From an uncultured bacterium (GTDB lineage: Bacteria > UBA8248 > JACPRG01 > G963555815): a stretch of DNA of 64,000 nucleotides. Shown piece after piece: positions 28,947-61,484 of this stretch. The stretch's first letter is position 1, and each line of letters begins with the position of its first letter. A program made the translations under genes and the position numbers. The DNA is taken from assembly GCA_964423875.1 (NCBI GenBank), contig CAYRGS010000002.1, positions 14,062 through 78,061 of the forward strand. The letters run 5' to 3'. The notes under the pieces are model-generated. The model ran no database searches and had not been told where the DNA came from. It was given only the letters and a program-made list of their open reading frames with translations.

Positions 28947-29185
28947 TTGTCCTCCACACGAAGCGTTGTCACGCGATTTCCGCAATGAACGAGACTGAAT
29001 TTTGTATACCACACATGGACCGTCTCCCCCAAGGCTCAAGGAATATCGGGAGACGCCGCCGGCCATTCAAACCGTCCCCCCCCCCTCTCTCTCCGCCCGC
29101 GCTTCGCGGGCCTGCTCATTGCCGTGGGATTCACCGAGAGAAAAAGATGCGGTGGGATTCAAAAGACTCGGTGGAGGCAAGAACT

Positions 29186-36482: not shown

Positions 36483-36493
36483 GGGAGAACAGT

Positions 36494-39950: not shown

Positions 39951-41108
39951 TCACTTGAGCTCCCCGATGACCTCCCGGGCGATCAACAGCCTCATGATCC
40001 CCGTCGTTCCCTCGAACAGCCTGGCCCCGCGCGCGTCGACGTAGAGCCGGGCGATCCGGGAGGCCTCGAAATAGCCGATCCCGCCGTGAATTTGAAGGGC
40101 CGCGTCCGTCACTCGGCCCGCCGCCTCCGACGCCAGCAGCTTCGCCATGGCCGCTTCGGTCCCCCAGGACCGATCCCGCGCCTTCAGCCACGCGGCGCGC
40201 AGGGTCATGAGCTCGGCGGCGTCGATGGCCGTCGCCATGTCCGCCAGAGAGAACACAACGGCCTGGAGGCTAGCCAGCGGCCCGCCGAACTGTTCCCGCG
40301 TCTTCGCGTGCAGAAGCGCCAGGGCCAGGGCCGCCCGGGCGATGCCCACGCATTGGCCCGCGATCCCCAAACGCCCAATTCCGACGGCTGTCTGAATCAA
40401 GTCGAAGCCGGCGCCTTCCTCCCCCAGCCGGTCTTCGGCCCGGACAAAGCAGTCTTCGAAGCGATGAACCGTCATGTTGGCCGCGCGCAGGCCGAGGGTC
40501 CGGGGCATCAGCTCATGCCGCACGCCCTCGGCGCGCTTGTCCACCATAAAAAACGTCAGCCCGCCGCGCCGGTCCTCCGAGGTCCGGGCGCACACGAGGG
40601 CGACTCCCTCATACGCTCCGTTGGACACGAAAACCTTCTCCCCGTTCAGAACGTATCCGCCACGGGCTTTTGTGGCCGAGGTTTCGATCGCCGTCACGTT
40701 GGACCCCGCCCGGGTTTCGGTCAGGGCGATGGACCCGATTTTTCCGCCCGCGACGTGGTCGGGCAGAATCCGCTGTTTCTGCTCATCGTCGGCCGCGCTT
40801 TGAATCGTGTCGCAGAACTGGTTGTTGATGGACATCACAAACCCGAGCGCCGGGGAGGCGGCGGCGACCTCCGCCACGGCCAGGACCCAGCCCACCGAAT
40901 CGATGCCGCTCCCTCCGCACTCGGCCGGGGCGACCATCCCGAGGAACCCCTGCTGGGCCATGCGCGTGAGGAAATCCTCCGGGATGCGCTCCTCGCGATC
41001 CCAGGTCTCGGCCTCGGGCGTCACACACTCCTTCACGAATGCCTTCGCCAGGTCCCGGATGCGGGATTGCGTCTCGTCGGGCTGAAAATCCAATCGGGTC
41101 CTCTCCAC
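39951..41108 (-). CDS. Acyl-CoA dehydrogenase
   Basis: 385-aa ORF with ACAD N, middle and C-terminal blocks (..GSIALTETRAGSNV.., ..QIHGGIGYFEASRIARLYVDARGARLFEGTTGIMRLLIAREV). Confidence 0.9.
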   Translation of the reverse strand: MERTRLDFQPDETQSRIRDLAKAFVKECVTPEAETWDREERIPEDFLTRMAQQGFLGMVAPAECGGSGIDSVGWVLAVAEVAAASPALGFVMSINNQFCDTIQSAADDEQKQRILPDHVAGGKIGSIALTETRAGSNVTAIETSATKARGGYVLNGEKVFVSNGAYEGVALVCARTSEDRRGGLTFFMVDKRAEGVRHELMPRTLGLRAANMTVHRFEDCFVRAEDRLGEEGAGFDLIQTAVGIGRLGIAGQCVGIARAALALALLHAKTREQFGGPLASLQAVVFSLADMATAIDAAELMTLRAAWLKARDRSWGTEAAMAKLLASEAAGRVTDAALQIHGGIGYFEASRIARLYVDARGARLFEGTTGIMRLLIAREVIGELK

Positions 41109-41270
41109 CAGAACCGGGACGCCGTCAACATGCCAACATCATACCCCCCAGGTTACCAGATGGCGGATGTCCGCTTAAGCGTTCCGCGTGCGTATAATGG
41201 GCGACGCCCGAACCCGGGAGGGGGCCGCAACCGCCTCGAACCGAACCACCCGGCCGGAAAGAAAGGCTTC

Positions 41271-46094: not shown

Positions 46095-47489
46095 TCAGAC
46101 TTTCGGCTGATGAACGCTCATCCCGCGAACAACGTGAGCGGCCTCCATGACGCTCTCGGCGAGCGTGGGGTGGGCGTGAATCGTCTCGGCCAGTTCGTCC
46201 ACGCTGAGCTCCCAGGTCATGGCGACGGCGGCCTCGTGAATCAACTCGGCCGCGCTCGCACCGATAATGTGGACGCCCAGGATCTCTCCGGTCCCCTCGG
46301 AGGTGACAATTTTGACCTCGCCGGCGATCTCCCCGACTGCCTGGGAGCGCCCCAGCGCCCGGTACGGGAAGCGGCCGATCTTGACGCCGTTTCCCGCCTC
46401 CTTGGCCTGGGCTTCGGTGAGGCCGATGCTTCCGATTTCGGGGTGCGTAAAGATCCCGGCAGGGATGGTCTCGTAGCGCATGGTCTTGTCGCCCCCTAGG
46501 GCGTTCGTGACGGCAACGATCCCCTCCGCGCTGGCCTTATGGGCAAGGAGCTTCCCCCCCGCCACGTCTCCGGCGGCGTAGATGCCGGAGACGCCGGTCT
46601 CCATTCGCCCATTAACCCGGATGTGTCCCTCCTCCACCAGGGCGACGCCCGCCGCCTCGAGACCGATGTCGCCGGTGTTCAGCGCCCGGCCAATCGAGAT
46701 CAGGGCCTTTTGGGCCTTCACACGCTCTCCGCCTGCCAGCTTCGCCTCGACGGAACCGAATTTTTTCTCCACACCCTCGATCTCCTGATCGACAATGAGA
46801 CGAATCTTCTCCTTCTTCAGCTCCCGCTCGAGTAGTTTCGAGATATCCTCGTCCTCGGTCGCGACGGCCCGGGGGAGCATCTCCAGCATCGTCACCTTGC
46901 ATCCCAGGGCGCTGAAGAGGAAGGCAAACTCGCATCCGATGATCCCTGCGCCAATAATGAGGAGGCTCTCGGGGATCTCCTCCATGACAACGGCGTCGTC
47001 CGAGGAGAGGATGTCCTTGCCGTCGGTGGGGAACGCGGGAAACTGCGCCGGACGGGAACCCGTGGCCAGGAGGACCTTGTCCGCGGACAGGTCCAAGACA
47101 CTTCCGTCCGCTTCGTTCACCTCGATGCGCCTCGCGGAGCGGAGCGCTCCCCGCCCCCGAATATGTGTGACACCGTGACTGTTGAACAGACCTTCGACGC
47201 CCTTCACCATTCCGGCGATGATTTTGTCCTTCCGGGCGATCATCGCGGCGAAATCGGCCCGGACCTCTCCATCAATCACCACGCCGAACTCGGCTGCCCT
47301 CTTGACCAGGCGCAAGACCTCGGTCGAGGCGATGAGGCTCTTGGTGGGGATGCATCCCCAATTCAGGCAGACGCCCCCCACCTTATCCCGCTCGATGACG
47401 CACACGCGCCCGCCCAGTTGGGCGCCTCGGATCGCCGCCACATACCCCGCCGGCCCCCCTCCCAAAACGGCCACGTCGAAATCCGTCAT
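46095..47489 (-). CDS. lpdA: Dihydrolipoyl dehydrogenase
   Basis: DVAVLGGGPAGYVAAIRGAQLG, the redox-active disulfide motif GGVCLNWGCIPTK, and the C-terminal HAHPTLAE. Confidence 0.9.
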   Translation of the reverse strand: MTDFDVAVLGGGPAGYVAAIRGAQLGGRVCVIERDKVGGVCLNWGCIPTKSLIASTEVLRLVKRAAEFGVVIDGEVRADFAAMIARKDKIIAGMVKGVEGLFNSHGVTHIRGRGALRSARRIEVNEADGSVLDLSADKVLLATGSRPAQFPAFPTDGKDILSSDDAVVMEEIPESLLIIGAGIIGCEFAFLFSALGCKVTMLEMLPRAVATEDEDISKLLERELKKEKIRLIVDQEIEGVEKKFGSVEAKLAGGERVKAQKALISIGRALNTGDIGLEAAGVALVEEGHIRVNGRMETGVSGIYAAGDVAGGKLLAHKASAEGIVAVTNALGGDKTMRYETIPAGIFTHPEIGSIGLTEAQAKEAGNGVKIGRFPYRALGRSQAVGEIAGEVKIVTSEGTGEILGVHIIGASAAELIHEAAVAMTWELSVDELAETIHAHPTLAESVMEAAHVVRGMSVHQPKV

Positions 47490-49341: not shown

Positions 49342-51396
49342 TCATTCAAGGGATGTGCTTGGCCGTGCCCACGTGAGCCTCCCCCTCCCCTTCTCGCCGA
49401 TGTGGTAATTGTGGCAGGTCAGACAGCCCTCCGGGGCCTCCGCCTTTTTGTGACAGGCGGCACACTCGGCTTTTTTGATCCGCTTGAAGTTCCCGTTGAA
49501 TTTCGCGGGATTGAAATCCTTGTACAGGTCCGCTGATTTGCGATCCGGGCGATGGCACGTGAAACACCTTTTCCCGTCGCCCAGGGTGAGGTGCGGCGCA
49601 TGGATGAAGCGGTTGAACCCCTTTTCATCGCTTCTCGGCCGCTTCTCCTCCCAGTTCACCCGGCGGACGCCCTTGACCTCGTCAACGCTGTGGCACTTCC
49701 CGCACATGTCCGGGAACGAGGCAGCGTCGGTTAAAGCGGTGAAAACCTTCTCCAGTGCCGAACCCCTCCGGCCCTTGACACTGAGGTCCAACCAGCCGCG
49801 AACGAAGCGGTCCGCGTGACCCGTGGGCCGATATATCAGCGAGAAGTCCTCCCGGCGCCAGGCGTCGGCGGCGCTCGACCCCTCGTCAGAAGAAGCTTTC
49901 GCCTGTCTGTCTTTCTTACCTCCCTTCCTGCCATCGGAATTTTCCTTCTCTTCCTCCACCTTCCAGCGGGACATCTCGGATTCAAGCTTGGGCAGCCAGG
50001 ACCGCTGGGCCGCGCGGACGATCTGAACGGGCATTTGCATGATAAGTCCAAGGGTCTCGCCTTCGCTCAATGACCGTCCAAGCGCCTTCACCAGTCGGTC
50101 ATTGAACCCCTTCTGCCCCTTTATTGACAGGTCAAAGAGGAGCGCCTTCACCAGCCGGGCGAGCCGCCCGGCCGCGATTGCTTGCTTCTCCTCGTCATCG
50201 TCCTCCAGCGCCGCTTCCACCTTCGCAAAGCCGGGGTCCGACGCGAGAAGAAAACGCATAAAAGCGGTGATTTCCTCCTCCTGGGCCTCCTCCGGCCATT
50301 CCCCCACATCCACATTGGCATCTCGGAGGGTGTCGAGATCAAGGGCTGGCAACGTGAAGATGGGGATGCCCTCGGCGCGAATATCCGCCTCATGGCAGAA
50401 GGCGCAGCTTTCTCCGAACCCTTTCATCAACATCTCGCCGCCCGCGGGGGACCGCTCGTGGCAGCGCCCGCAAGGGAGCGGATCGCCCTTTTTGAGCAGG
50501 CCTTTTTTTCTGAAGTGTTTGGGGTGGGAAACGTGATCGAAGATCAGCCGGGTCCGCCGCCCATATGGAAAACGCGTGAATTCAGGGTGACTTGTCCCAA
50601 AGTCGCGATACCGGTAGACATGGCATGCTTGGCATCGTCGATCGTCCATGGCCGTCAAGTCGAATTTCCTGCCCCGGTGTTCTTTATGGCACACGGCGCA
50701 GGCCAACTTCGCCCCGCCGGCTTGCCCCCCCTTCAAATCAAGCAAGGAGGCCAGGAAGAGGGCCGGTGAACCGCCGGCCGGGGGAAACCTCTTTCGGATT
50801 TTCGAGGTGATCCGAGCCAGCTTCTCGGGCGAGGACGTGTGCGACCGCATGGCCTGATCGCCCAGGGTGTGGCAACCCAGACAAAGCCCGCTGTCATCCC
50901 GCGCGGATCCGGACGTCAGGGCGGCCTGGACCCACTTCGTCAAGCCCCCTTGAAACACCGTGTGGCAGTTCTCGCAGCGCCGTCCCAGCGTGCCGTGGTG
51001 CACAGTCAACGGGCCCGGCGAGATGAATTCCCGACCGGCATCGCCGGAGAGGAGCAGGAAGATGAGACCGAACATGAGCCCCAACGCCCAGCGGGAGAGC
51101 GCCCCGCGGCGTGCTCTTGCGTTCAGAACCGGCCGGCAGGGCGGGACGACACTCGAGCAAGCACCGTCGGGCAGCGGGCCCGCATCGCACGCGCCGCCGA
51201 AGGCGTTCGCACGCGCGCACTTCCACCGGGCCCCGTTTTTTTTGGGCGTGCACTCGCGCGCGGCCATGCACCGGCCCTTGTGATCCGGTCCGATGCCGCA
51301 GGCCTTCCCCTCGGCCGCCCATCCGCACACCCACTTCTGGGTCGGCCGCTCGTAATGGGATTCAGCGAACCCGTAATCTTGCAGGCGCCGGCTCAT
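49342..51396 (-). CDS. Decahaem c-type cytochrome with N-terminal Cys-rich region and single TM anchor
   Basis: Ten CXXCH motifs: CENCH, CLGCH, CAVCH, CQACH, CGRCH, CAFCH, CGKCH, CFTCH, CAACH, CLTCH. Eight Cys lie in the first about 90 aa. The sequence then reads ARARRGALSRW followed by the TM segment ALGLMFGLIFLLL. The ATG overlaps the upstream stop (ATGA at 51393-51396). Confidence 0.85.
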   Translation of the reverse strand: MSRRLQDYGFAESHYERPTQKWVCGWAAEGKACGIGPDHKGRCMAARECTPKKNGARWKCARANAFGGACDAGPLPDGACSSVVPPCRPVLNARARRGALSRWALGLMFGLIFLLLSGDAGREFISPGPLTVHHGTLGRRCENCHTVFQGGLTKWVQAALTSGSARDDSGLCLGCHTLGDQAMRSHTSSPEKLARITSKIRKRFPPAGGSPALFLASLLDLKGGQAGGAKLACAVCHKEHRGRKFDLTAMDDRRCQACHVYRYRDFGTSHPEFTRFPYGRRTRLIFDHVSHPKHFRKKGLLKKGDPLPCGRCHERSPAGGEMLMKGFGESCAFCHEADIRAEGIPIFTLPALDLDTLRDANVDVGEWPEEAQEEEITAFMRFLLASDPGFAKVEAALEDDDEEKQAIAAGRLARLVKALLFDLSIKGQKGFNDRLVKALGRSLSEGETLGLIMQMPVQIVRAAQRSWLPKLESEMSRWKVEEEKENSDGRKGGKKDRQAKASSDEGSSAADAWRREDFSLIYRPTGHADRFVRGWLDLSVKGRRGSALEKVFTALTDAASFPDMCGKCHSVDEVKGVRRVNWEEKRPRSDEKGFNRFIHAPHLTLGDGKRCFTCHRPDRKSADLYKDFNPAKFNGNFKRIKKAECAACHKKAEAPEGCLTCHNYHIGEKGRGRLTWARPSTSLE

Positions 51397-52229
51397 GGAT
51401 TTCCAACCGAGAAGGCGTAGATGAAGACCACGTGTTCAAGGGCAAGAATCAACAGGCAGTAGGTCAGCGGAACATGGAAAAACAGCCACCGCTTCAGCAT
51501 CGCCTGCAGGGCGTGCTGGTGGTCTAGGTGATCCTTTTGCCGCACGAGCTCAACCAAGGCGTCCAGGTGGCACTTTTGCTCCTTGTTCAGATAACGCCGC
51601 AGTCCGGTGCTCTCTTCCAAAAGAGCGTGGAGGGGGCCATTCGACTGCAAGAGGTGCAACCAGAAGTTGCGCGGACCGGAAAAGAAAGACAAGAGCCGGT
51701 CGGCGTAGAAGTCCGCAATCGTCGTCGACTTCCCCTCCTCGGCGGATCGAACGACCAGGGCCTCCGCCTCCTCCCGCAACCGGCGGCGAAGCTCGGGGAT
51801 TCGCTCGAAGATGACCTCTTCCCCATGACGGGCAAGACGGGGCGCGAATCGTCGCGAGATTCGAAAACCGAACACGCCGCTGGCCGCCGCGCCCAGATAC
51901 AACAGGGCCAGCGTCATCTCCAAAGGCCCGTTCGGCGCTCGGAACCCCACGTGAAGCAGGAACAGGAGAATCGAGAACCACCCGATATTCAAGTGGACCT
52001 GGAGCCAGACGGAAGAAGACCCAAGCGGAAGAAAGGGAAGTTTTTTGCGAACATTATAAATGGCGAGGAAAACAATGGCCGCCAGCAGAACCGAGCCGCT
52101 CAGAAATTGAGAGCGCAGAAGAGTCGAAGAATATGCGTGATCAACCGCAACCGCGACAAGGGAGAAAACGACCAGGATCAACAAACTGAGCCACCGGCGG
52201 GCGGCAAAGGTCATCACCGGTTGACCCAC
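51393..52229 (-). CDS. Integral membrane protein, candidate dihaem b subunit (two H-x13-H helices)
   Basis: The ORF has five predicted TM segments. VHLNIGWFSILLFLLHV and FHVPLTYCLLILALEHV each carry two His residues 14 positions apart. An alternative ATG at 52214 gives a TGATG overlap with the upstream gene. Confidence 0.65.
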   Translation of the reverse strand: MGQPVMTFAARRWLSLLILVVFSLVAVAVDHAYSSTLLRSQFLSGSVLLAAIVFLAIYNVRKKLPFLPLGSSSVWLQVHLNIGWFSILLFLLHVGFRAPNGPLEMTLALLYLGAAASGVFGFRISRRFAPRLARHGEEVIFERIPELRRRLREEAEALVVRSAEEGKSTTIADFYADRLLSFFSGPRNFWLHLLQSNGPLHALLEESTGLRRYLNKEQKCHLDALVELVRQKDHLDHQHALQAMLKRWLFFHVPLTYCLLILALEHVVFIYAFSVGNP

Positions 52230-53941
52230 TTCAAAAGCTCATCCCCATCCCGCAAGTCCATGCGAATCAACGCATCGTGCGGGCAGGCCCGCTGGCAGGC
52301 GGGGCCGCCCATCTGGTCGATGCACAGGTCGCATTTCGTCGCCCTCTCAATAGGAAGGTTCGTTTCCTGGTCCAAGAGGAGGTTTCCTTTCGGGTCTTGG
52401 ATCGGGACCATCCGGATGTTGTCATAGGGACAACTGTTCGCGCAGGTCGAGCACCCGATGCAGGTGACGTCGTTGATAACGACCTGCCCCCCATCGCGGT
52501 CGCGATGGATCGCCCCTGTCGGGCAACCGATCATACACACCGGATCGATGCAGTGCATGCACGCGTTCGCGATCATGTAACGGCCGTCCCGCTTTCCGTG
52601 TCGGATGAAGCGCGGGTTGTTGTCGTGCGTCTCCGCGCAGGCCCGGACGCACTCGTCGCACCGGGTGCATCGATCCAGGTCGATAACCATGGCGGCCGTA
52701 CCGTTGATGAAGCGGTTGTCGACAAGGAACTCCTGGAAGCCGATTTCAAGCTCGGCGCCCTTTCGCGCGTCCCGCCACGCCGACCGGGCGGCCGAACGAG
52801 GCGTGACCCTCGGCGGAAGCATCTCCTCCGGGATCGACGGCAGGACGTACTTCTCGATGATGGCCGTCGGCACGCGCAAAATGCCGACGTATCCCACGGC
52901 CCGCAAGGTTTTTTGAAGAGAAACCGCCTCGCCGAATTGCCAGTTGTGGGCGATTTCGTTGAAACCGAACGTCGCCCCCCGGCCCAGATAGCTGACCGTC
53001 CGGTGGCCACTTTCGATGACCTCGGAGAGTCGGGCGAACCCCGTGCGGATCAAAATCAACCCATCGGCGTAGTGGCCCTCCTGCGCGATGACGGGTTCGT
53101 GCTCAAGCCGCTCGGCCGCCTCTTTGGCGGCCAGTGACTTGAACGTTCCATACCAGTCGAAGGTCCCATACGTCTCGAAAAGGACGCTGTCCGCGACCAC
53201 CTTTTGGTCTTCCTCATTGAGACGCCGGAACTCGGGCAGCTCATTCAGGTAGACTTTCAGGCTGCGCTCCCGATAGAGCCGATCGATGTATTTCCGCACC
53301 CCGTCGTCCCAGCGCCGGATGTCGCGCAGCCCCTGCCAGCGCACCTCGAGGAGTATGCACTCGCCGTCGGCGAATACCGTCGCCGTCCGCGGGTGCCGGC
53401 CCAACGCCGCGAGCTCGCCGAACAGCGTGCCCACATGGAGAGGGGTGTTTTTGTATCGATCCAAAATGGCGGGGACGTCCTGAAGGAAAATACGCGTCTC
53501 GCGGCCCGCCCCCGACTGGGCGAAACCGCCGGACCTCTTGTGTTTCACCCACTCCCGGACTTCGGGAAGCCGGGAGTTCGACCAAAGCTGGCCGAGAGCC
53601 CGGAAGAATCCTTTCCCCTGGGGTTCGCGCCGTCCGAGGAGCGACTCCTCCAGAGGATCGATGGCGACGCGGACGGACCCATCCAGAACCAGAAAGGCGG
53701 AATGTCCGTAATCTCCCCGGCGCACGATGATCTCGCCGTTATGGCACCGAAGAATGCGCGATTCGTTCTTCAGGATGTCGCGAAACGGCGCGCCCGAGGG
53801 GAAGTTGGCGGGATCGACTTGATCGAGCGGTGGCTTCGTCAAGAGCCAATCGATGTCCGCGTCGGACATTTCGGCCGAGAACGGCTCGTCCCGCATCTGA
53901 GGGGGCTGTATGGCTAGGGGTTCAGCCGGCATGCTACGCAA
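52214..53941 (-). CDS. Protein with two cyclic-nucleotide-binding-like domains fused to a four-cluster [4Fe-4S] ferredoxin module (DmsB/NrfC/PsrB-like)
   Basis: cNMP domain 1 is ILRCHNGEIIVRRGDYGHSAFLVLDGSVRV..LFGELAALGRHPRTATVFA, with an intact FGE..R-T-A phosphate-binding cassette. Domain 2 is VIAQEGHYADGLILIRTGFARL..GATFGFNEIA, with a degenerate cassette. The Cys motifs are CTRCDECVRAC, CMHCIDPVCMIGCP, CIGCSTCANSCP and CDLC..CQRACP. There is no twin-arginine or hydrophobic signal at the N-terminus. Confidence 0.85.
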   Translation of the reverse strand: MRSMPAEPLAIQPPQMRDEPFSAEMSDADIDWLLTKPPLDQVDPANFPSGAPFRDILKNESRILRCHNGEIIVRRGDYGHSAFLVLDGSVRVAIDPLEESLLGRREPQGKGFFRALGQLWSNSRLPEVREWVKHKRSGGFAQSGAGRETRIFLQDVPAILDRYKNTPLHVGTLFGELAALGRHPRTATVFADGECILLEVRWQGLRDIRRWDDGVRKYIDRLYRERSLKVYLNELPEFRRLNEEDQKVVADSVLFETYGTFDWYGTFKSLAAKEAAERLEHEPVIAQEGHYADGLILIRTGFARLSEVIESGHRTVSYLGRGATFGFNEIAHNWQFGEAVSLQKTLRAVGYVGILRVPTAIIEKYVLPSIPEEMLPPRVTPRSAARSAWRDARKGAELEIGFQEFLVDNRFINGTAAMVIDLDRCTRCDECVRACAETHDNNPRFIRHGKRDGRYMIANACMHCIDPVCMIGCPTGAIHRDRDGGQVVINDVTCIGCSTCANSCPYDNIRMVPIQDPKGNLLLDQETNLPIERATKCDLCIDQMGGPACQRACPHDALIRMDLRDGDELLKWVNR

Positions 53942-53969: not shown

Positions 53970-55016
53970 CTATGGCGCTGGAGTCCCCTTGTACGTATCC
54001 GCTTGGGGAATCATCGGATCCAGGGCCGCCCACGCGCCGCCGTTGGAGGGATCGGACAGCTTCTTCGCCGCCTCGGCGACCTTCTCGGCGGCCGCAAGGA
54101 GGGCGTCTGAATGATTCGGCTTGAGCTCCACCGCGGACACGGCGGCCAGGATCGCGTCGATCTCGGTCACCTTGACCAGCCCGGCCGCCCGCTTCAGGGA
54201 CTCTATTGCGGCCGCCACACGCACCGCCATCCTCTGGGCGTAAACCCCATCGGCGCTGGCCTTGGCCAACCCGCGCAGGTTGTACTCCAGTTTCACCGCT
54301 TGGCCGACGAGAAAGAGAACTCGCTTGACCTCCACCGAGGCCTCGGCGTTCTGCTTTCCTTCCGAGGCGACGAAGTTGTGGAGGACCTCGCCCTGCGACC
54401 ATGCAACGAGCTCGAAATCGCTTCCGGGCGGGTGGCTCCCCACGTTCACCAGCTTCTCATTGGGGACGGTGTGGCACCCCAAACAGCCCGAGGCGAGACG
54501 GTAAATCTCAACGGGCCGGATCATGCCGGCCGCTTTTAATTTCGAGAGCCGCATTTCTCTGTGCTCGGGGGCTTCATTTTTTTTCGCTGTGTTGTCGTTG
54601 TCCCCGAATTCCTGATGAACGTCCACCCATTCAACGGCCGCCCCGTGGCAGGACTCGCAGGAAACGCCCGCAATGGCTTTCGTCCTATTCCCTCTCGGAA
54701 TCGAGGTGTAGTGGCAACCCGCACAAAAGCCCCGTTTGATGAGCCTGACGTTCATCGCCTTGGCGATCTTTCGGCTCACCTTGCGCCGCGGATTTTTCGT
54801 CAAGCTCCGGAACCCTTTGGCGTGCTTTGACTCCTTCCACGCCTTCACCGCAGACTCATGGCACTGGCCACATTTTTTGGGTCCGACCACCTTCTTCGGG
54901 TCCGGAGCGGCAGTGGCTGTCCCCGCCAGTGCGCCGCACACCAGACCCAAGGCGGCGGCGATCCAAAGGCGCCGTGATCCCAAACTCACCAGAAAATATT
55001 TTCCGCTAAACATCAC
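53970..55016 (-). CDS. Tetrahaem c-type cytochrome (periplasmic, c554-like N-terminal part plus helical C-terminal domain)
   Basis: The signal peptide is LWIAAALGLVCGALAGTATAA. The CXXCH motifs are CGQCH, CAGCH, CESCH and CLGCH. Confidence 0.85.
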   Translation of the reverse strand: MMFSGKYFLVSLGSRRLWIAAALGLVCGALAGTATAAPDPKKVVGPKKCGQCHESAVKAWKESKHAKGFRSLTKNPRRKVSRKIAKAMNVRLIKRGFCAGCHYTSIPRGNRTKAIAGVSCESCHGAAVEWVDVHQEFGDNDNTAKKNEAPEHREMRLSKLKAAGMIRPVEIYRLASGCLGCHTVPNEKLVNVGSHPPGSDFELVAWSQGEVLHNFVASEGKQNAEASVEVKRVLFLVGQAVKLEYNLRGLAKASADGVYAQRMAVRVAAAIESLKRAAGLVKVTEIDAILAAVSAVELKPNHSDALLAAAEKVAEAAKKLSDPSNGGAWAALDPMIPQADTYKGTPAP

Positions 55017-55254: not shown

Positions 55255-56619
55255 TCACGCCTCCAACGTCAGATCGGCCTTGGGGACGGAAATACAAGTC
55301 AGACAGGATCCTTCCTCAGGAATCGCGCCGGGCTCCTGAAGGTAGTCCACCTCCCCTTCTTTCACAGCCGTAAGACAGGTTCCGCAATTCCCCGCCTGGC
55401 AGCCGGAATTGATGACGACCCCATTGCTGAGGGCGAAGTCCAGGAGGGAGCCGATCGAGGGATCCCAAGGAAGGGTTTTGTCGCTTTTGGCGAACGTGAC
55501 TTCAATCCCAGGCCCAGCTTCCACCTCAGGCTCTCCGGGCGCGGCCCCCTTCTTTTTCACGCTGGCGCGTCCGAAGGACTCGAAATGCACGCTGGCTTCG
55601 GGAACCCCCCATTTTGCGAGCTGCTGCGTGATCGCGTCCATCATGGGACCCGGCCCGCAGATGTAAAAGTCATAGTTGCTCGAGGGAAGCAATTGCTTGA
55701 AGAGATCTACGCCCACCCACCCGGCGTGGCAGTGGTCCCCGCCCTCCACGTCGCCCTCCTCAGGATCGCTGTAACACACGTGGAGGCGGACGTTCTCGTT
55801 CTCGGCCGCGATCCGTTCGAGGTGCTCTTTGAAGATGTACTCCTTCCCGTTTCGCACACCCAAGAACAGCCACGTCTCGCGCCGCGATCCCGACTTGACA
55901 ACGGCGTTCAACATACTCAGAAGCGGGGTGATCCCGATCCCGCCGGCGATCAAGACGATCGGACGGGGTTCGCTCATGTCGAGGTAGAAAATCCCCCTCG
56001 GCGCCTCGACGTCAAGGATATTGCCCTCTTTCAGTAGATCGTGGAAGAAGCCGGAAACCACCCCGGGTGGGGGAGCCTTTTTGATGGTAACGCGGTACTG
56101 GTTGGAGGAATTCGAGCAATCCGACAGCGAATAGCACCGGACCACCTTCTGCTCGGCGCTTTGGCCCTCCCCTTGGAGGTTGAGCGCAAATGTCAGATAC
56201 TGACCCGGTTTAAACGAGGGCAGCGGCTTTTCATCGTGGGGCTTGAGGTAAAAAGAGCAAACTCCTGGGCACTCCGAGACCTTCCGTTGGATCCGGAATT
56301 TCCTGTAGCCGGGCCAGGCGTGGTCACCGCTCGCAACATCGCCGGCGACGCCTTTGGCAATCTCGACCTCGTAGCGGAGCAGCTTGCGCGCGAGCCTTTG
56401 CTGGCCCCTGTCGTGGGCCAGCCGATTCAGCGACGAAAACAAGAGGACCGCAACCTGGATCAGGACCGCCGCAACGATGATGGCGCCCGCGATTTGGATG
56501 ACGTTGAGCGATGGCGTCAAGCCCGCCCTCCCGCCGATGTAATGCCCATAAACGGAATGAAATCGGAACGCGTTCGCGGAAAGAACGAAAGCGCCCAGCT
56601 CGTTGTCCCTCCAGTGCAT
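55255..56619 (-). CDS. Membrane-anchored FNR-like oxidoreductase (FAD/NAD(P)-binding + C-terminal plant-type [2Fe-2S] ferredoxin)
   Basis: The TM segment is IAGAIIVAAVLIQVAVLLF. RCYSLS is the RxYS FAD motif, GGIGITP is the NAD(P) motif, and CQAGNCGTCLTAV..CLTC is the 2Fe-2S motif. Confidence 0.8.
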   Translation of the reverse strand: MHWRDNELGAFVLSANAFRFHSVYGHYIGGRAGLTPSLNVIQIAGAIIVAAVLIQVAVLLFSSLNRLAHDRGQQRLARKLLRYEVEIAKGVAGDVASGDHAWPGYRKFRIQRKVSECPGVCSFYLKPHDEKPLPSFKPGQYLTFALNLQGEGQSAEQKVVRCYSLSDCSNSSNQYRVTIKKAPPPGVVSGFFHDLLKEGNILDVEAPRGIFYLDMSEPRPIVLIAGGIGITPLLSMLNAVVKSGSRRETWLFLGVRNGKEYIFKEHLERIAAENENVRLHVCYSDPEEGDVEGGDHCHAGWVGVDLFKQLLPSSNYDFYICGPGPMMDAITQQLAKWGVPEASVHFESFGRASVKKKGAAPGEPEVEAGPGIEVTFAKSDKTLPWDPSIGSLLDFALSNGVVINSGCQAGNCGTCLTAVKEGEVDYLQEPGAIPEEGSCLTCISVPKADLTLEA

Positions 56620-57065
56620 CTTATATTTGTTTCTTTCTGAATACCATCAGAGATTTACAGCGGAACCGACGGCCGGGAGGGGGGAAGGGGCGGATTTCGG
56701 GTTTTTTCCACCATGACTCAGTGTTCTGTGATTCACATTCAGGCCGAACCCCCGCCAGTGATTGCGTTTGAACCTAGTCATCGGGAGGAAAATGGTCCGC
56801 AGGGAGAACAAAAGTTCCGCGTAGGTTGTCGATTCTTGAGTATATCCCCCGCCCGCGGCCCAGGCGGGAGGCGCGGAAAGCGCGTGATGTCCCAGAGAAA
56901 ACCGGCCACCAACACGGCCAAACGCGGAGGACAGCCCAACGCCTCCGGTGCGGATTCGAAATTGCATAATTCACCAGATGCATTACAATACACAAGAGGA
57001 AGACAACCGGCTGGAGGCCCGCACCCCAATCCAACATCCGGGCTTCCGGCCGCAGGGAGGTGAGA

Positions 57066-58928
57066 ATGCCACAAAAACGCTCGGTCGGAATCAGAGACAT
57101 ACTCGGCGTCGCGGCGGCGCTGGGGGTTTCATCCTTCCTGATCGCGACACCCGCGCGGGCCGCCTCCCCCACCGCGGAAAAACCGGCCAAGCCGAAGGTG
57201 GAAAAACCCCTCCAAGGTCCGCGCCTGGCGCAGGGAGTCAAACCGGCAAAGTCAAACGGTGCGGAGACGGACGCCCAGGCCGCCCACGCGGCCCTCTTTG
57301 CCGAAAGCCGGTATCCCTCGGCGGCGACGTGCGGGTCCTGCCATCCGCAACACTACAAAGAGTGGTCGGTCTCACAGCATTCATATTCTCAACTGAGTCC
57401 GATGTACATGGCTATCAACAACTTTCTCAATTCAGTGACCAGCGGGACCATGGGAGACTTCTGCCTACGCTGCCACAGCCAGGTCGGCGCGAACCTCGGC
57501 GAATCGTCATTCATCTCCAACCTCGAGCGGCATCCTACCTCCCGGGAAGGCATCACCTGCGTGGTTTGCCACCGGACCAACAAGGTATACAACAAGGTCA
57601 GCGGACGCCTCGCCCTGGTTGAGGGGAACCTCCTTCAACCCGTCTATGGCCCCACCGGCAACAAAGAGCTCGCCCGTGTTTTGAAAGAGGGGCGGTTCGA
57701 AACGAAGGATATCAAGAAACCGGGTCGGAAAATCCACGAAAAGGTGGTGAAATTTTCTGCGCTCACCAGCTCGACTTTCTGCGGCACCTGCCACGACGTC
57801 ACCCTGTTCAACGGGTTTCGGTTGGAGGAGGCCTTCAGCGAATACAGGGTCTCACCGGCCGCCGGGCGCGGCGTCTCCTGTCAGGACTGCCACATGGGCA
57901 AGGTCCAAGGGGTCAACGCGGGCTACAACCGCGGACCCGGCGCGGTTGTCGACGGCAAACCGACCCGGACGCGGAAGATCACCAACCACACGTTCGCCGG
58001 GCCGGACTACTCGATCATCCATCCGGGGATCTTTCCGCACAACACCGAGGCGCAGCAAATGGCCACGCTCCGGGAATGGCTCAAATTCGATTACAAGGCG
58101 GGCTGGGGAACGGACAAGTTCGAGGACGACGTTGGTGACGACGACAAGTTCCCGGAGCGGTGGGAGTCGGTCGACGACCGTTACGAAGCGCGTGAAATCC
58201 TCGACGAACAATTCAAGCACCTCGAATGGGCGCGGGAAAAGCGGTTGGAGCTGCTACGCAACGGATACCATCTCGGCGCCATCGAGACCCTGAGCGCGGA
58301 TCGGGAAGGCATCGGCTTCCGGGTAAAGGTGAAAAACGCCACCGACGGCCACAACGCGCCGACCGGCTTCACCGGCGAGCGGTTGGTGTGGCTCCAAGTA
58401 ACGGTCACGGACCGCACGGGGGCCGCAATTTTCCGATCGGGAGATCTGGACCCCAACGGCGACCTGCGCGACGTCGAATCATCTTACGTCCACAACGGTG
58501 AGCTGCCACTGGACCGCCAGCTCTTCAACCTCCAGTCGCGCTTCGTGGTCAAGAACATTCGCGGCGGCGAGCGAGAGCGGGTGATCCCCATCCCCTACCC
58601 CATCAGCGCACTGCCTTTCGTCCGGCCGTCCATCCTGTCCCTGATCCTCACGGGCGAGCCGACGACGGAGCGCAACCACCGAAAAGGCATTGAGCCCCTA
58701 GGACACCGGTGGGCGGAATACCGGATCCCGGGCAAGGCCCTCACTGGCAAAGCCCCCTATCAAGCCAACGTCAAGCTGATGGCCGCCATGATACCAATCA
58801 ATCTGGTTGCGGCCGTTCAAAGCGTGGGTTTCGATTTCAACATGAGCGCCCGCGCCGTCGGCGACGCAGTGGTGGCTGGGCACGAAGTCATCTGGGAAAA
58901 AAATGTCACCTTTAAGATCGGTCCTTAG
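57066..58928 (+). CDS. Pentahaem c-type cytochrome with large C-terminal non-haem domain
   Basis: The signal peptide is VAAALGVSSFLIATPARAA. The CXXCH motifs are CGSCH, CLRCH, CVVCH, CGTCH and CQDCH. The C-terminal block is KNATDGHNAPTGFTGERLVWLQVTVTD. I prefer the ATG at 57066 after GGGAGG to the GTG at 57060. Confidence 0.85.
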   Translation: MPQKRSVGIRDILGVAAALGVSSFLIATPARAASPTAEKPAKPKVEKPLQGPRLAQGVKPAKSNGAETDAQAAHAALFAESRYPSAATCGSCHPQHYKEWSVSQHSYSQLSPMYMAINNFLNSVTSGTMGDFCLRCHSQVGANLGESSFISNLERHPTSREGITCVVCHRTNKVYNKVSGRLALVEGNLLQPVYGPTGNKELARVLKEGRFETKDIKKPGRKIHEKVVKFSALTSSTFCGTCHDVTLFNGFRLEEAFSEYRVSPAAGRGVSCQDCHMGKVQGVNAGYNRGPGAVVDGKPTRTRKITNHTFAGPDYSIIHPGIFPHNTEAQQMATLREWLKFDYKAGWGTDKFEDDVGDDDKFPERWESVDDRYEAREILDEQFKHLEWAREKRLELLRNGYHLGAIETLSADREGIGFRVKVKNATDGHNAPTGFTGERLVWLQVTVTDRTGAAIFRSGDLDPNGDLRDVESSYVHNGELPLDRQLFNLQSRFVVKNIRGGERERVIPIPYPISALPFVRPSILSLILTGEPTTERNHRKGIEPLGHRWAEYRIPGKALTGKAPYQANVKLMAAMIPINLVAAVQSVGFDFNMSARAVGDAVVAGHEVIWEKNVTFKIGP

Positions 58929-59023: not shown

Positions 59024-60442
59024 ATGCGCCATTCGCCTAGACGCTTGCTTGGGCCGTTTCTTTCGGCGACGCGCGACGTCGCCCGCCTTGCGCTCGTCCT
59101 CCTTCTATTCGGTGCACTGTCGGCTTGCGACAGTCTGTACCCGTTGGGGGAGAAATCGAAGGTCAGTCGGCTTTCCGACAAACCCACGCGGTTCCTGACA
59201 AAAGGAGACATCCCGGACCGCCCCCCCCTCATCCTAGAGTTGGGCGATCCCTTCCTGGCCCCGGGCAATCTGGGCGCCGGCTTCGAGCTGCCGACAGGCG
59301 CCGTGTGGCAACCGAGGCTCTGGGTATTCGGGACTCTTCGGACCGCCCTTCAGACATTCGACAACGGCGTCACCCCCCCCACCCCGGAATGGGCGAACCG
59401 TTTTGACCTGTTCGCCAACCTCCAACTGACGGGAACCGAAAAAATCATCCTCGGCATCCGTCCCCTGGACAAAAACCGATTTAACGCCTTTTCCGGCTAC
59501 GCCATTGAAGAGGACCGCGTCAAAAACGAGCTCAACGCGAACATCCGCACCTTCTTCTTTGAGGGTGACTTCGGCAGCCTGTTTCCCAATCTCGACAAGC
59601 AGGGATTCATCCCCATCGACCTCGGCTTTTCGCTTGGCCGCCAGCCCCTCCTATTCCAGGACGGCATTCTGATCAACGACACCGTCGACTCGCTGGGACT
59701 CGTCCGCAACAACGTTCGCCTTCCCGGCGTGTCGAACCTGCGCATATCCGGCGTTTATGGATGGGACGAGCTCGACAGCCGCAACGACCGCCAGGCCTAT
59801 ATGTTGGGGATGTTCCTCGCGGCGGACATGCCGATCAGCACGGTGGAGCTCGACGCCATCTACGTCGGCGAGAACCGGCCCGAGGGGGGCTCTTTCCATG
59901 CCGGCGTCGCCACGACCCAGAGAATCGGGCACATCAGCACCACGTTTCGGGTCCTCGGCTCTTATTCCGAGGCTGAGGACAACGCCCGCGTCGCCGACGG
60001 TGTCCTGTTGACTTCCGAGGTGTCGTGGACGCCGCAATCCTCGGACGACATCGTCTACATCAACTCCTTTTTGGCGATCGACAACTTCACGCAGGCGGGA
60101 CGGGAGCCGATTGTCGGAGGTCCCTTGGCGGCGCTCGGAATTCTCTTCGCCTCGCCGAACCTCGGAAACCATCTGTCCGAGCTCAGCGGCCGCGCCAACG
60201 ACATCGTGGGCGGCGCAATCGGGTACCAGGCATTCTGGGACAACCACCGCCGCAACCTGGTCTTGGAGCTAGCGGGTCGGGTGGACACAAGCGGCGTCGG
60301 CCCCAGCGACTACGCCTTGGGCTTTCAATTCCAGCAGGCGTTTTTCCGGCGGATCCTTCTCCAGGTCGACAGCTTCTACGCCGTGCAGGAAGATCGGGAC
60401 GACGCCTACGGGGCCCGCACGGAACTCCTCGTCCAGTTTTAA
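59024..60442 (+). CDS. Putative outer-membrane beta-barrel lipoprotein
   Basis: The lipobox is LFGALSAC. The sequence shows alternating amphipathic strands and ends ..ARTELLVQF with a C-terminal Phe. No family name recognised. Confidence 0.6.
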   Translation: MRHSPRRLLGPFLSATRDVARLALVLLLFGALSACDSLYPLGEKSKVSRLSDKPTRFLTKGDIPDRPPLILELGDPFLAPGNLGAGFELPTGAVWQPRLWVFGTLRTALQTFDNGVTPPTPEWANRFDLFANLQLTGTEKIILGIRPLDKNRFNAFSGYAIEEDRVKNELNANIRTFFFEGDFGSLFPNLDKQGFIPIDLGFSLGRQPLLFQDGILINDTVDSLGLVRNNVRLPGVSNLRISGVYGWDELDSRNDRQAYMLGMFLAADMPISTVELDAIYVGENRPEGGSFHAGVATTQRIGHISTTFRVLGSYSEAEDNARVADGVLLTSEVSWTPQSSDDIVYINSFLAIDNFTQAGREPIVGGPLAALGILFASPNLGNHLSELSGRANDIVGGAIGYQAFWDNHRRNLVLELAGRVDTSGVGPSDYALGFQFQQAFFRRILLQVDSFYAVQEDRDDAYGARTELLVQF

Positions 60443-61010: not shown

Positions 61011-61484
61011 CTAGTGCGACCCGGAGACCGACAACCCGCGCTTTTCGAAATACTGCTGATGATAATCCTCCGCCTGGTAATACACAGAAGCGGTCGTGAT
61101 CTCCGTCATGATGGGCCTGGAAAACCGGTCGGAGTTCTCGGCTCTCTCCTTCGACGCCCGGGCCGCGGTTTCCTGTTCCGGGCTGTGGAAGAAAGCGGCC
61201 GAGCGATATTGCGTGCCCACGTCCGGACCCTGCCGATTCAGCGTGGTCGGGTCGTGGTTGGCCCAGAACACCTCCAGAAGCTCGTCATACGAGACCACAG
61301 AAGGGTCGAACTTCACTTCGACGACCTCAGCGTGCCCCGTCCGTCCCGTGCACACGTCTTCATAGGTCGGGTTCTCGAGCGTCCCGCCGCTGTATCCGAC
61401 GCTCGTCGACGTCACTCCCCGGACCTGCCGGAACGCCACCTCGACGCCCCAGAAACATCCCGCTCCAAACGTGGCCTTCTCCAT
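61011..61484 (-). CDS. msrA: Peptide-methionine (S)-S-oxide reductase
   Basis: [34 protein letters not shown] contains the GCFWG active-site motif. Confidence 0.9.

Follow-up and report, generated by a model that had tools for sequence, protein, structure and literature searches.

The 64,000-nucleotide stretch of DNA analysed here (the window) carries a complete seven-gene cluster, ptdABCDEFG, and the open reading frame under study encodes its subunit PtdE, as identified by the gene set and the types of proteins encoded. On balance, we favour the view that PtdE is the cytoplasmic iron-sulfur subunit of a Ptd complex that passes electrons from NAD(P)H through PtdC, PtdE and PtdF to multihaem cytochromes, gated by the cyclic nucleotide-binding (CNB) domains of PtdE.

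The ptdABCDEFG genes were named in marine Alphaproteobacteria UBA11136, where their function was termed "completely unknown"; the supplement of that study also lists Nitrospina, Nitrospirales and Planctomycetota (bioRxiv 10.1101/2023.11.21.568154). The window cluster contains the same components as the published one: a pentahaem cytochrome, a barrel, a FAD/NAD reductase, a tetrahaem cytochrome, a protein with cNMP-binding and 4Fe-4S domains, a membrane protein and a decahaem cytochrome. The published haem counts (5, 4 and 10) match the window ptdA, ptdD and ptdG. In contrast to the published cluster, the window ptdAB genes are divergent from ptdCDEFG. The seven genes of the window are as follows.

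49342..51396, minus strand: ptdG, a cytoplasmic N-terminal part with 8 Cys, a single transmembrane helix (aa 98–121) and a periplasmic decahaem domain (10 CxxCH motifs; one hydrophobic segment)
51393..52229, minus strand: ptdF, a membrane protein of five helices and a helical insert on the cytoplasmic side (invariant His, AF2 model, synteny); probable start ATG 52214
52214..53941, minus strand: ptdE, tandem cNMP-binding domains and a predicted four-cluster ferredoxin (ORF and translation, Pfam, full-length homologues)
53970..55016, minus strand: ptdD, a signal peptide and a tetrahaem cytochrome c554-like protein (4 CxxCH motifs; Pfam Cytochrome_C554, E 1.3e-16)
55255..56619, minus strand: ptdC, an N-terminal membrane anchor, a FAD/NAD(P)H ferredoxin-reductase module and a C-terminal plant-type [2Fe-2S] domain (Pfam FAD_binding_6, NAD_binding_1, Fer2)
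57060..58928, plus strand: ptdA, a signal peptide and a pentahaem cytochrome, divergent from ptdC (five CxxCH motifs; Pfam Cytochrome_C554 and MtrC-like domains)
59024..60442, plus strand: ptdB, a putative outer-membrane barrel (lipobox LSAC, C-terminal ...LLVQF; adjoins ptdA in 41 of 80 loci)

The ptdE frame comprises 575 aa when counted from the TTG at 53941. The sequence-only reading had given its extent as 52214–53941, and all features reported for it there are present, with two corrections: the strand is minus, and the start is probably the ATG at 53932, yielding a product of 572 aa, because Met occupies residue 4 in 91 of 114 aligned PtdE sequences, the window copy included. Since TTG 53941 is the earliest possible start downstream of an in-frame stop codon, a longer N-terminus is impossible, and no upstream start exists that could add a signal peptide. 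The N-terminus has no RR motif in the translation, and no 19-residue stretch of the whole protein reaches a Kyte-Doolittle value of 1.6. The earlier expectation of an N-terminus with neither an RR motif nor a hydrophobic core is thus borne out, and these observations support the prediction that PtdE is a soluble cytoplasmic protein. A periplasmic subunit of the DmsB/NrfC/DsrO type was rejected for the same reasons; besides, its partners in the cluster are an NAD(P)H reductase and cytochromes of the c type. Within PtdE, the following elements were delineated.

53237..53809, minus strand: CNB domain 1 (about aa 45–235; Pfam cNMP_binding, Foldseek matches to PKA-R/PKG)
53369..53425, minus strand: phosphate-binding cassette of CNB domain 1 (aa 173–191, LFGELAALGRHPRTATVFA; conservation in 114 homologues)
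52832..53224, minus strand: CNB domain 2 (about aa 240–370; second Pfam stretch, Foldseek tandem alignment)
52247..52702, minus strand: HycB/HydN-type ferredoxin (about aa 414–565) with four Cys motifs (Fer4_11/Fer4_7, HycB3 alignment, Cys conservation)

By its structural model, the N-terminal half of PtdE is a PKA-R/PKG-like tandem of CNB folds. The Pfam family cNMP_binding (PF00027) matched two stretches with 67.1 bits against a cut-off of 27.5. The AlphaFold (AF2) model has a pLDDT of 87.7, and its top 50 Foldseek matches in PDB are all tandem CNB-A/B domains of PKA-R or PKG (E 7e-15 to 1e-11, identity 12–17%, tandem alignments of 339–392 columns). The two cNMP-binding folds proposed earlier are therefore confirmed by Pfam, model and fold search, the latter yielding the CNB fold and not the cupin or other fold against which the sequence-only reading had cautioned. 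A conserved stretch of about 65 aa (about aa 100–165), with the motifs LGR..QLWxN..PEVR, is inserted in CNB domain 1, and the phmmer alignment to PKG/PKA-R is broken there into two pieces. The insertion residues G103 and E127 are invariant in alignments of both 25 and 114 PtdE sequences; Q118 and R129 are invariant in the former and conserved in at least 90% of the latter.

The cassette of CNB domain 1 (FGELAALGRHPRTA) satisfies the pattern F-G-E-x-A-L-x(4)-P-R-[ST]-A and, as its conservation argues, is under selection. Among the 114 homologues, E176 and R182 are retained in all, G175 and R185 in 113 each, A187 in 101 and T186 in 96; in 74 more distant sequences Glu is kept in 67 and Arg in 65. 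CNB domain 2 has FGFNEIAHN at aa 325–333 (FGFNEIAHNW), which does not satisfy the canonical pattern, and an invariant L346-R347 pair lies 18 residues beyond Glu329. G326 is found in all 114 homologues and E329 in 112, with R347 invariant. The earlier description of a canonical cassette in the first domain and a degenerate second one holds for both, the Arg of the latter being displaced.

The C-terminal module should bind four [4Fe-4S] clusters, as ligands for four are present. The translation contains the motifs C425xxC428xxC431xxxC435, C461xxC464x4C469xxxC473P, C494xxC497xxC500xxxC504P and C537xxC540x8C549xxxC553P. Pfam Fer4_11 scored 45.6 bits against a cut-off of 26.2, Fer4_7 was matched as well, and all four Cys groups align with HycB3 (PDB 7qv7_A, E 4.9e-19), in accordance with the four-cluster ferredoxin first proposed. 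All 16 Cys are invariant among 25 aligned PtdE sequences; in the alignment of 114, 13 are invariant and three are conserved in at least 90%, and in the distant sequences each is retained in at least 68 of 74. Domain scores, fold matches and residue conservation of PtdE all greatly exceed random expectation. Four-cluster ferredoxins that are cytoplasmic by nature include HycB, HydN and AegA. The module had been called a DmsB/NrfC-type ferredoxin lacking a Tat signal; the absence of the signal stands, but the oddity was overstated, as the closest solved or curated relatives include HycB3, HycB4, E. coli formate hydrogenlyase subunit 2, HydN and AegA as well as DsrO and DmsB. All scores of PtdE against NCBIfam equivalogs are far below their cut-offs (e.g. 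61.8 vs. 200 for DsrO). In the published description PtdE was assigned two 4Fe-4S clusters (10.1101/2023.11.21.568154), whereas we predict four from its 16 conserved Cys and their alignment with HycB3.

The ptdE stop and ptdF start overlap by one base (TGATG), and the ptdG ATG overlaps the ptdF stop (ATGA). In PtdF, H79/H93 and H252/H266 form two H-x13-H pairs that are invariant in 60 sequences. The AF2 model (pLDDT 91.1) has five helices and a 120-aa cytoplasmic helical insert; by its helix layout and the positive-inside rule, both helices with His pairs run from the cytoplasmic side to the outside. From the His pattern alone, two b haems are predicted at these pairs. No Pfam family matches PtdF at E≤0.01, and the best fold match in PDB is not significant (E 0.75). 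Weak Pfam matches at E≤1 among 60 PtdF homologues, all below curated cut-offs, are to DUF4405 (34), Ni_hydr_CYTB, the prokaryotic cytochrome b561 family (18), and Ferric_reduct (7). Two natural PtdE-PtdF fusions (P0250 and P0285) have the PtdF part after the ferredoxin, with 40% (E 4e-53) and 33% (E 8e-43) identity to the window PtdF, respectively. This placement fits the N-in topology of PtdF derived from the positive-inside rule; however, given the one-base overlap of the two genes, the fusions could be artefacts of frameshifts or gene calling. PtdG homologues have exactly 10 CxxCH motifs in 66 of 69 cases and retain the eight N-terminal Cys in 61–64 of 69. PtdC has a hydrophobic segment at aa 34–68. 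PtdB matches no Pfam family and was termed a porin in the published study (10.1101/2023.11.21.568154).

The domain fusion in PtdE had been regarded as unusual, and this did not hold. Full-length homologues number in the thousands and come from at least ten bacterial phyla, so that the cNMP-ferredoxin fusion is widespread rather than one-off; it is routinely annotated by NCBI and JGI as a cyclic nucleotide-binding/4Fe-4S protein and is published as PtdE. The window thus adds one further copy of a family already annotated and named, and its own value is limited. Most ptd hosts in the genome scan belong to Verrucomicrobiota, Planctomycetota and Alphaproteobacteria, and the cluster was also found in Nitrospinota, Nitrospirales and one zetaproteobacterial MAG (L074). 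The published clusters are confined to marine or saline settings (10.1101/2023.11.21.568154), whereas our scan also yielded it in MAGs with names that point to freshwater, groundwater and soil.

Synteny was compared at the ptdE loci of 80 genomes from many phyla, with ptdA and ptdB counted within 8 kb. The ptdF gene adjoins ptdE in 75 loci; ptdG and ptdD are present in 72 each, ptdC in 71, ptdB in 41 and ptdA in 40. The ptdE, ptdF and ptdG genes are consecutive and on one strand in every sufficiently long locus, and the window order ptdD-E-F-G (4, 0, 0 and 10 CxxCH motifs) is kept in most. The conserved core is therefore PtdC-(D)-E-F-G. This core, the consecutive E-F-G genes, the four clusters of PtdE, the H-x13-H sites of PtdF and the PtdE-PtdF fusions are new relative to the published description.

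In the mechanism that we favour, PtdC would oxidize NAD(P)H and pass electrons from its [2Fe-2S] centre to the four-cluster wire of PtdE, which would be docked on the cytoplasmic face of PtdF. Two stacked b haems, held by the H-x13-H pairs on parallel helices of PtdF, could then carry the electron across the membrane to the decahaem PtdG and the tetrahaem PtdD in the periplasm; where present, the pentahaem PtdA and the barrel PtdB may extend the path as far as the outer membrane or hand the electron to a substrate in the periplasm. Such a path would bypass quinones and dissipate membrane potential. In CNB domain 1, the intact cassette would most likely bind cAMP or cGMP, opening or closing the path allosterically, and CNB domain 2 may serve as a degenerate partner or a transducer. 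We infer the direction of electron flow from the reductase type and energetics, and gating is likewise ascribed tentatively to the CNB domains. The gene context gives a more definite form to ligand-controlled electron transfer, already suggested by the sequence-only reading, as it places PtdE between an NAD(P)H reductase in the cytoplasm and a membrane protein with predicted haem b. Regulatory use of the N-terminal half of PtdE is also supported by variants with added FHA domains (P0081, P0252 and P0306). About 10% of distant family representatives are without the cassette Glu or Arg, so ligand control cannot hold throughout the family.

Parts of this architecture resemble known systems. HycB3 and HycB4 of the hydrogen-dependent CO2 reductase (7qv7), E. 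coli HycB, HydN and the N-terminal domain of AegA share with PtdE a four-motif 16-Cys ferredoxin and the absence of a signal peptide, and HycB3 is its best sequence match among solved structures. The HycB-type proteins are stand-alone, about 180–210 aa long, and located beside a hydrogenase or formate dehydrogenase; PtdE, in contrast, has some 410 additional N-terminal residues of the CNB tandem, and its partners are a membrane protein and c-type cytochromes. With PKA-R and PKG, PtdE shares two consecutive CNB folds and the domain 1 cassette FGE...R-T-A, but it has the 65-aa insertion in domain 1 and no canonical cassette in domain 2, and control would be exerted on an Fe-S wire of the same chain rather than on a kinase. 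Hmc, Tmc and DsrMKJOP of sulfate reducers likewise form transmembrane conduits, each made of an Fe-S protein in the cytoplasm, a cytochrome b in the membrane and a multihaem cytochrome c in the periplasm, and PtdE has weak NCBIfam matches to DsrO and HmcB. In those complexes the cytoplasmic subunit is HdrD-like (CCG domains), DsrO and HmcB are periplasmic, and the membrane subunits are of NarI or NrfD type; neither a CNB domain nor an NAD(P)H reductase is known from any of them. CRP/FNR proteins share the CNB fold, and FNR also has an Fe-S cluster, but PtdE differs in having a tandem of CNB folds together with a 16-Cys ferredoxin module. A CRP/FNR transcription factor was rejected for PtdE, as no HTH is among its Pfam matches and its C-terminus is a ferredoxin. 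An anti-phage effector (Pycsar/CBASS) was also rejected: the matches reach only about 20 bits via the shared CNB fold, and the context is a redox cluster.

The gated role of PtdE has to be weighed against other uses of the same proteins. In a less probable but possible scenario, the complex would be the same but its CNB domains would provide PtdC or PtdF with a scaffold or docking surface, or recognize a different phosphate-bearing ligand, leaving electron flow without second-messenger control. No nucleotide cyclase is conserved near the ptd cluster across the compared loci or present among the window ORFs scanned, which agrees with such a role, as do the degenerate CNB domain 2, the insertion in CNB domain 1, which is not a feature of classical CNB domains, and the distant members that have lost the cassette Glu or Arg while all 16 Cys are still there. 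The CNB folds of CooA, NtcA and CprK bind other ligands. However, ligand-switched CNB folds normally lose the phosphate-binding cassette, whereas the full G-E...R-T-A cassette is near-invariant in the 114 homologues, and the best fold matches of PtdE are true cAMP or cGMP binders. The converse coupling, in which the Fe-S clusters sense redox state and the CNB domains transmit the signal, had been named earlier as redox-controlled signalling and has a precedent in FNR, where a CNB-like fold and an Fe-S cluster serve sensing. We consider it very improbable: Pfam reveals no output domain in PtdE, be it DNA-binding, kinase, cyclase or other, four clusters in the HycB arrangement make up a wire, not a sensor, and ptdE overlaps and co-occurs with genes of electron-transfer partners.

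Other alternatives concern the destination and direction of the electrons. They could be delivered to a periplasmic nitrogen-oxide enzyme, with PtdA as an NrfA-like enzyme that reduces or oxidizes nitrite, NO or hydroxylamine. PtdA was assigned to the NrfA COG, PtdC was found similar to the reductases of flavohaemoprotein NO dioxygenases, and ptd occurs in nitrite oxidizers (bioRxiv 10.1101/2023.11.21.568154); our best NCBIfam match of PtdC, the reductase part of NO-inducible flavohaemoprotein, points the same way. We regard this destination as unlikely, since PtdA and PtdB are absent within 8 kb in half of the loci where PtdC, PtdE, PtdF and PtdG persist, and PtdB resembles an outer-membrane barrel, pointing outward; it is nevertheless compatible with the proposed role of PtdE, only the terminal acceptor being different. 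More doubtful still is inward flow, from periplasmic or extracellular donors via the cytochromes, PtdF and PtdE to PtdC with formation of NAD(P)H, e.g. in nitrite or iron oxidizers. Nitrospinota, Nitrospirales and Zetaproteobacteria, all represented among ptd hosts (the last by L074), include nitrite or iron oxidizers that need reverse electron flow, and FNR-type reductases are reversible. Yet electrons entering from the positive side of the membrane would have to move against the membrane potential to reach the negative side, and reduction of NAD(P)+ by high-potential donors is strongly uphill while ptd loci contain no energy-coupling subunit. Moreover, the closest curated relatives of PtdC (flavohaemoprotein, BenC, MmoC) oxidize NAD(P)H, and the Verrucomicrobiota, Planctomycetota and Alphaproteobacteria that make up most hosts are mostly heterotrophs.

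Returning to gated outward transfer, we tentatively suggest that the Ptd core (PtdC-E-F-G) could be a second-messenger-gated bacterial counterpart of NADPH oxidase, in which cAMP or cGMP on PtdE would switch a quinone-independent leak of NAD(P)H electrons to the periplasm or cell surface, and PtdF would be a previously unclassified five-helix dihaem cytochrome b. The proposed logic resembles that of the NADPH oxidase/ferric reductase family (NOX, FRE, MsrQ-type), divided among subunits and prolonged by cytochrome c wires; in that family, electrons from NAD(P)H and flavin cross two stacked bis-His b haems on two parallel helices to an outside acceptor. NOX has H-x13-H and H-x12-H pairs, and in NOX5 and DUOX a regulatory domain fused to the protein gates the flow. 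Of the features that define this group, PtdF has the two His pairs 12–14 residues apart on parallel transmembrane helices, but the Pfam Ferric_reduct matches among its homologues stay below threshold. In contrast to NOX and ferric reductases, the Ptd functions are spread over three polypeptides with a four-cluster wire inserted, and PtdF has five helices and the 120-aa insert, reaches no Pfam threshold and has no significant fold match in PDB. If true, this would be the first direct allosteric cyclic-nucleotide control of a respiratory-type electron wire, acting on the protein and not via CRP-type transcription. Abundant bacteria of oceans, freshwater and soil outside the classical metal reducers would then also possess a module for transmembrane electron export, built on a new kind of dihaem membrane subunit, and the leak might serve extracellular metal or oxygen reduction or redox balancing. 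The question bears on the identity of the marine iron reducers in oxygen-deficient zones and on which enzymes make extracellular reduced species. Hosts to which a gated, NADPH oxidase-like Ptd would apply are widespread and include Verrucomicrobiota, Planctomycetota, Alphaproteobacteria and Nitrospinota.

The N-terminal two-thirds of PtdE, the cNMP-binding and 4Fe-4S subunit encoded by a multihaem-cytochrome gene cluster, are predicted to form a tandem of cyclic nucleotide-binding (CNB) domains like that of protein kinase A regulatory subunits. The Pfam family cNMP_binding matches two stretches of the protein (67.1 bits against a cut-off of 27.5). An AlphaFold2 model was built on 114 homologues (pLDDT 87.7, pTM 0.84), and a Foldseek search of the PDB with it gave nothing but CNB-A/CNB-B tandems of PKA regulatory subunits and PKG among the 50 highest-ranking hits (E 7e-15 to 1e-11), which rules out a cupin as the alternative fold.

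Residues are numbered here on the 575-aa ORF. The first domain contains the phosphate-binding cassette LFGELAALGRHPRTATVFA at aa 173-191. Among the 114 aligned sequences G175 is found in 113, E176 in 114, R182 in 114, R185 in 113, T186 in 96 and A187 in 101; in a distant set of 74 sequences (73 cluster representatives and the query, down to about 32% identity) the cassette Glu is retained in 67 and the Arg in 65. This conservation points to strong selection on the cassette. The second domain, with FGFNEIAHN at aa 325-333, retains the CNB fold; its Gly326 is invariant and Glu329 is present in 112 of 114 sequences. Its cassette is lengthened, with an invariant Leu346-Arg347 pair 18 residues past the Glu, so that the term 'degenerate', applied to it in the sequence-only reading, was fair. 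The alignment of domain 1 with PKG and PKA regulatory subunits is split in two by a conserved insertion of some 65 residues (approximately aa 100-165). The insertion (53446-53641, minus strand; LGR..QLWxN..PEVR) breaks into the beta-barrel of the domain. Its residues G103 and E127 are invariant, Q118 and R129 are at least 90% conserved, and it may be an interface with PtdF or PtdC.

The C-terminal module contains four groups of cysteines (C425/428/431/435, C461/464/469/473, C494/497/500/504 and C537/540/549/553), and the Pfam dicluster families Fer4_11 and Fer4_7 match aa 417-560. Its best match is HycB3 of the hydrogen-dependent CO2 reductase (7qv7_A, E 4.9e-19), with which all four groups align. 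The 16 cysteines are invariant in a 25-sequence alignment, at least 90% conserved in the 114-sequence alignment, and each is kept in at least 68 of the 74 distant sequences. Given these cysteines and the HycB3 alignment, PtdE is predicted to hold four [4Fe-4S] clusters rather than two, a count that is new here.

The gene itself is real and lies on the minus strand; the extent 52214-53941 proposed earlier holds, and every motif quoted with it is found in the translation. The plus-strand reading of this interval was rejected, as it has two internal stops in that frame. The ORF opens with TTG, but the ATG at 53932 is probably the true start, giving 572 aa, since Met occupies ORF residue 4 in 91 of 114 aligned sequences; 572 aa is also the commonest length among the closest homologues. 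PtdE lacks an RR motif, and no part of it forms a hydrophobic segment. A hidden signal peptide is excluded because the TTG is the first possible start past the upstream in-frame stop, and the protein is cytoplasmic, as had been proposed. The earlier description as a DmsB/NrfC-type ferredoxin lacking a Tat signal overstates the oddity. The closest curated and solved relatives of PtdE include HycB3/B4, formate hydrogenlyase subunit 2, HydN and AegA, together with DsrO and DmsB; HycB, HydN and AegA are natively cytoplasmic, so that in this branch the absence of a Tat signal is the rule and no anomaly. At aa 13-17 (53893-53905, minus strand) the protein of the window reads PPQMR, as against a near-invariant N-terminal RPQRW, thus departing from both R16 (111 of 114 homologues) and W17 (110 of 114).

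The domain fusion, which had been called unusual, proved to be common across many phyla. A search of 5.8 billion proteins gave 5090 matches; the best 120 are 53-94% identical, have both domain types and are nearly all full length. Named annotations among these 120 include 'cyclic nucleotide-binding domain-containing protein', '4Fe-4S dicluster domain-containing protein' and 'Fe-S-cluster-containing dehydrogenase component/CRP-like cAMP-binding protein'. The CNB tandem alone (aa 1-400) retrieved 214 clusters (50% identity level, E<=1e-30), and among the 150 of them that are listed full-length entries are mostly 550-620 aa. A scan of species-representative genomes yielded at least 591 related stretches. 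The best 80 cover nearly the whole query at 49-62% identity and come from Nitrospinota, Planctomycetota, Verrucomicrobiota, Alpha-, Beta-, Gamma- and Zetaproteobacteria, SAR324, Acidobacteriota, Gemmatimonadota and Methylomirabilota, including Ca. Uabimicrobium amorphum, Hwanghaeella grinnelliae and Ferruginivarius sediminum. The nearest named relatives among the matches listed are Nitrospinota MAGs (62% and 59% identity). PtdE thus adds one more member to a family that is widespread, annotated and already has a name. Three homologues (P0081, P0252 and P0306) carry one or two phosphothreonine-binding FHA domains, N-terminal or inserted, which suggests that the N-terminal half of PtdE is a regulatory platform. 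A Ser/Thr protein kinase gene is a neighbour in Ca. Uabimicrobium (L032, 3652-5415) and at four other loci.

Genes of the ptd cluster in the window (coordinates, strand, description)
49342-51396, minus: ptdG, ten CxxCH
51393-52229, minus: ptdF, membrane protein, no Pfam family
52214..53941, minus: ptdE, 575-aa ORF from TTG
53970-55016, minus: ptdD, signal peptide, four CxxCH, cytochrome c554-like
55255-56619, minus: ptdC, membrane anchor, FAD-/NAD(P)H-binding module and [2Fe-2S] domain
57060-58928, plus, divergent: ptdA, five CxxCH
59024-60442, plus, divergent: ptdB, putative barrel, no Pfam family

This gene set is exactly the ptdABCDEFG cluster named in a preprint (bioRxiv 10.1101/2023.11.21.568154), whose supplement includes examples from Nitrospina, Nitrospirales and Planctomycetota. 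A literature search for other names or a characterisation of PtdE or ptd gave this single preprint only. PtdB has a lipoprotein signal (LLLFGALSAC, lipobox LSAC) and ends in ...LLVQF, a C-terminus with a final Phe that is typical of outer-membrane proteins.

A tblastn search of the loci of these 80 best genome matches detected PtdF in 75, PtdG and PtdD in 72 each, PtdC in 71, PtdB in 41 and PtdA in 40. Genes E, F and G are consecutive and on the same strand in every locus that has all three; the gaps are few, and most lie where a contig ends. In one subgroup of Verrucomicrobiota, PtdD is divergent and encoded on the opposite strand, and neither PtdA nor PtdB is found within 8 kb. Since A and B occur in only about half of the loci and D diverges in this subgroup, the conserved core is C-(D)-E-F-G. 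The linkage of ptdE is obligate to ptdF and ptdG, and usual to ptdC and ptdD. One base is common to the ptdE stop and the probable ptdF start (TGATG, 52212-52216, minus strand), and the ptdF stop overlaps the ptdG start (ATGA, 51393-51396, minus strand); these overlaps suggest translational coupling of the three proteins. All-against-all ORF clustering of the 80 loci revealed no conserved partner beyond A-G, such as a nucleotide cyclase; the extra clusters were set aside as antisense shadow ORFs or lineage-specific genes (FecR-like, HbpS-like, ABC ATPase, Ser/Thr kinase). Nor was a cyclase found among 20 additional ORFs scanned in the window. A reading of PtdE as a Pycsar-like cNMP effector of a defence system was rejected.

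In the AlphaFold2 model of PtdF (pLDDT 91.1), a helical insert of about 120 residues on the cytoplasmic side lies between the first four membrane helices and the fifth. Two histidine pairs, H79/H93 in helix 3 and H252/H266 in helix 5, are invariant in 60 homologues, with 13 residues between the members of each pair. The positive-inside rule orients both helices with their N-terminal ends at the cytoplasm, and hence one bis-His haem is predicted near each membrane face, as is also seen in ferric reductase/NOX domains and cytochrome b. Sub-threshold family matches of the 60 homologues (DUF4405 in 34, Ni_hydr_CYTB in 18, Ferric_reduct in 7) lend weak support. Foldseek returned no significant PDB match for the model (best E 0.75; cytochrome b561 only at E 2.0), so that PtdF is not assigned to any known cytochrome b fold. 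Two proteins found with the query 52742-53941, P0250 (843 aa) and P0285 (856 aa), have a ferredoxin that is followed immediately by a PtdF homologue (40% identity to PtdF of the window, E 4e-53, and 33%, E 8e-43, respectively). They look like natural PtdE-PtdF fusions, although the one-base overlap of the genes also allows a frameshift artefact, and they support both a physical association of the two proteins and the cytoplasmic location of PtdE. P0267 (852 aa) was not counted as a third fusion; just a short piece of it matches PtdF, and it is probably a frameshifted gene call.

PtdG is described only as a periplasmic decahaem protein in the accessible part of the preprint (bioRxiv 10.1101/2023.11.21.568154). 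Its sequence indicates that it is not simply periplasmic: in aa 1-121 (within 49342-51396, minus strand) about 95 N-terminal residues, predicted to be cytoplasmic, are followed by a single membrane helix and then the decahaem domain. Eight cysteines of this region (C24, 33, 43, 49, 60, 70, 80 and 87) are kept in 61-64 of 69 homologues whose N-terminal parts were aligned. The region opens with YERPxQxWVCG, which is similar to RPQRWDxPF, conserved at the PtdE N-terminus. It may bind a metal or an Fe-S cluster on the cytoplasmic side, or act in docking.

The domain composition of PtdE, the conservation of its ligand and cluster residues and its cytoplasmic location are established, and it is very likely the cytoplasmic Fe-S subunit of a transmembrane Ptd conduit. 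Electrons from NAD(P)H would pass through the FAD and [2Fe-2S] centre of PtdC to the four clusters of PtdE, then to the two b haems of PtdF and on to PtdG and PtdD, with PtdA/PtdB or a periplasmic substrate as the last step. The main rival for the direction is inward flow, which would run against the membrane potential and the redox gradient in a cluster without a coupling subunit; PtdC belongs with the NAD(P)H-oxidising reductases (flavohaemoprotein, BenC, MmoC), and on both grounds we favour outward flow. That the terminal enzyme transforms nitrogen oxides is another main rival, one that does not conflict with the role proposed for PtdE.

An outward, quinone-independent path would dissipate the membrane potential, so that tight control would make sense, and the near-invariant cassette of CNB domain 1 is the obvious candidate for it, by analogy with the regulatory domains fused to NOX5 and DUOX. 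Gating of the conduit by cNMP binding is a tentative proposal to which we give an even chance or slightly less; its main rival is a non-cNMP or purely structural role of the CNB tandem. The reading that combines the subunit assignment with the gating is, in our judgement, marginally probable. The existence of PtdE would not surprise a specialist; the hypothesis of a cNMP-gated electron conduit, however, is sharply defined and inexpensive to test, and it concerns extracellular electron transfer in bacteria that are abundant in the environment.

In one locus of a close relative (L081; ctg117720, 935 kb), whose PtdF is 92% identical to that of the window, the ptd genes are disrupted: ptdC, ptdD and ptdE are fragmented, and IS3-family transposase genes lie downstream of ptdG and within the region of ptdE. 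Either the cluster is truly decaying, or frameshift errors from long-read sequencing come on top of true IS insertions.

Other redox genes in the window (coordinates, strand, description)
25174-27651, minus: xanthine-dehydrogenase-family molybdenum enzyme (Pfam)
27915-29066, minus: Rieske/VanA-type oxygenase (Pfam)
36212-37483, plus: ETF-alpha-like protein with a 100-aa N-terminal extension, upstream of the 40086-43277 gene
40086-43277, plus: 1063-aa protein with 4Fe-4S dicluster and two CCG (HdrD-like) domains
46095-47489, minus: pyridine-nucleotide-disulfide oxidoreductase (Pfam)
61011-61484, minus: putative methionine sulfoxide reductase A-like ORF (GCFWG motif alone)

The genes at 36212-37483 and 40086-43277 may constitute a second, unrelated electron-transfer module.
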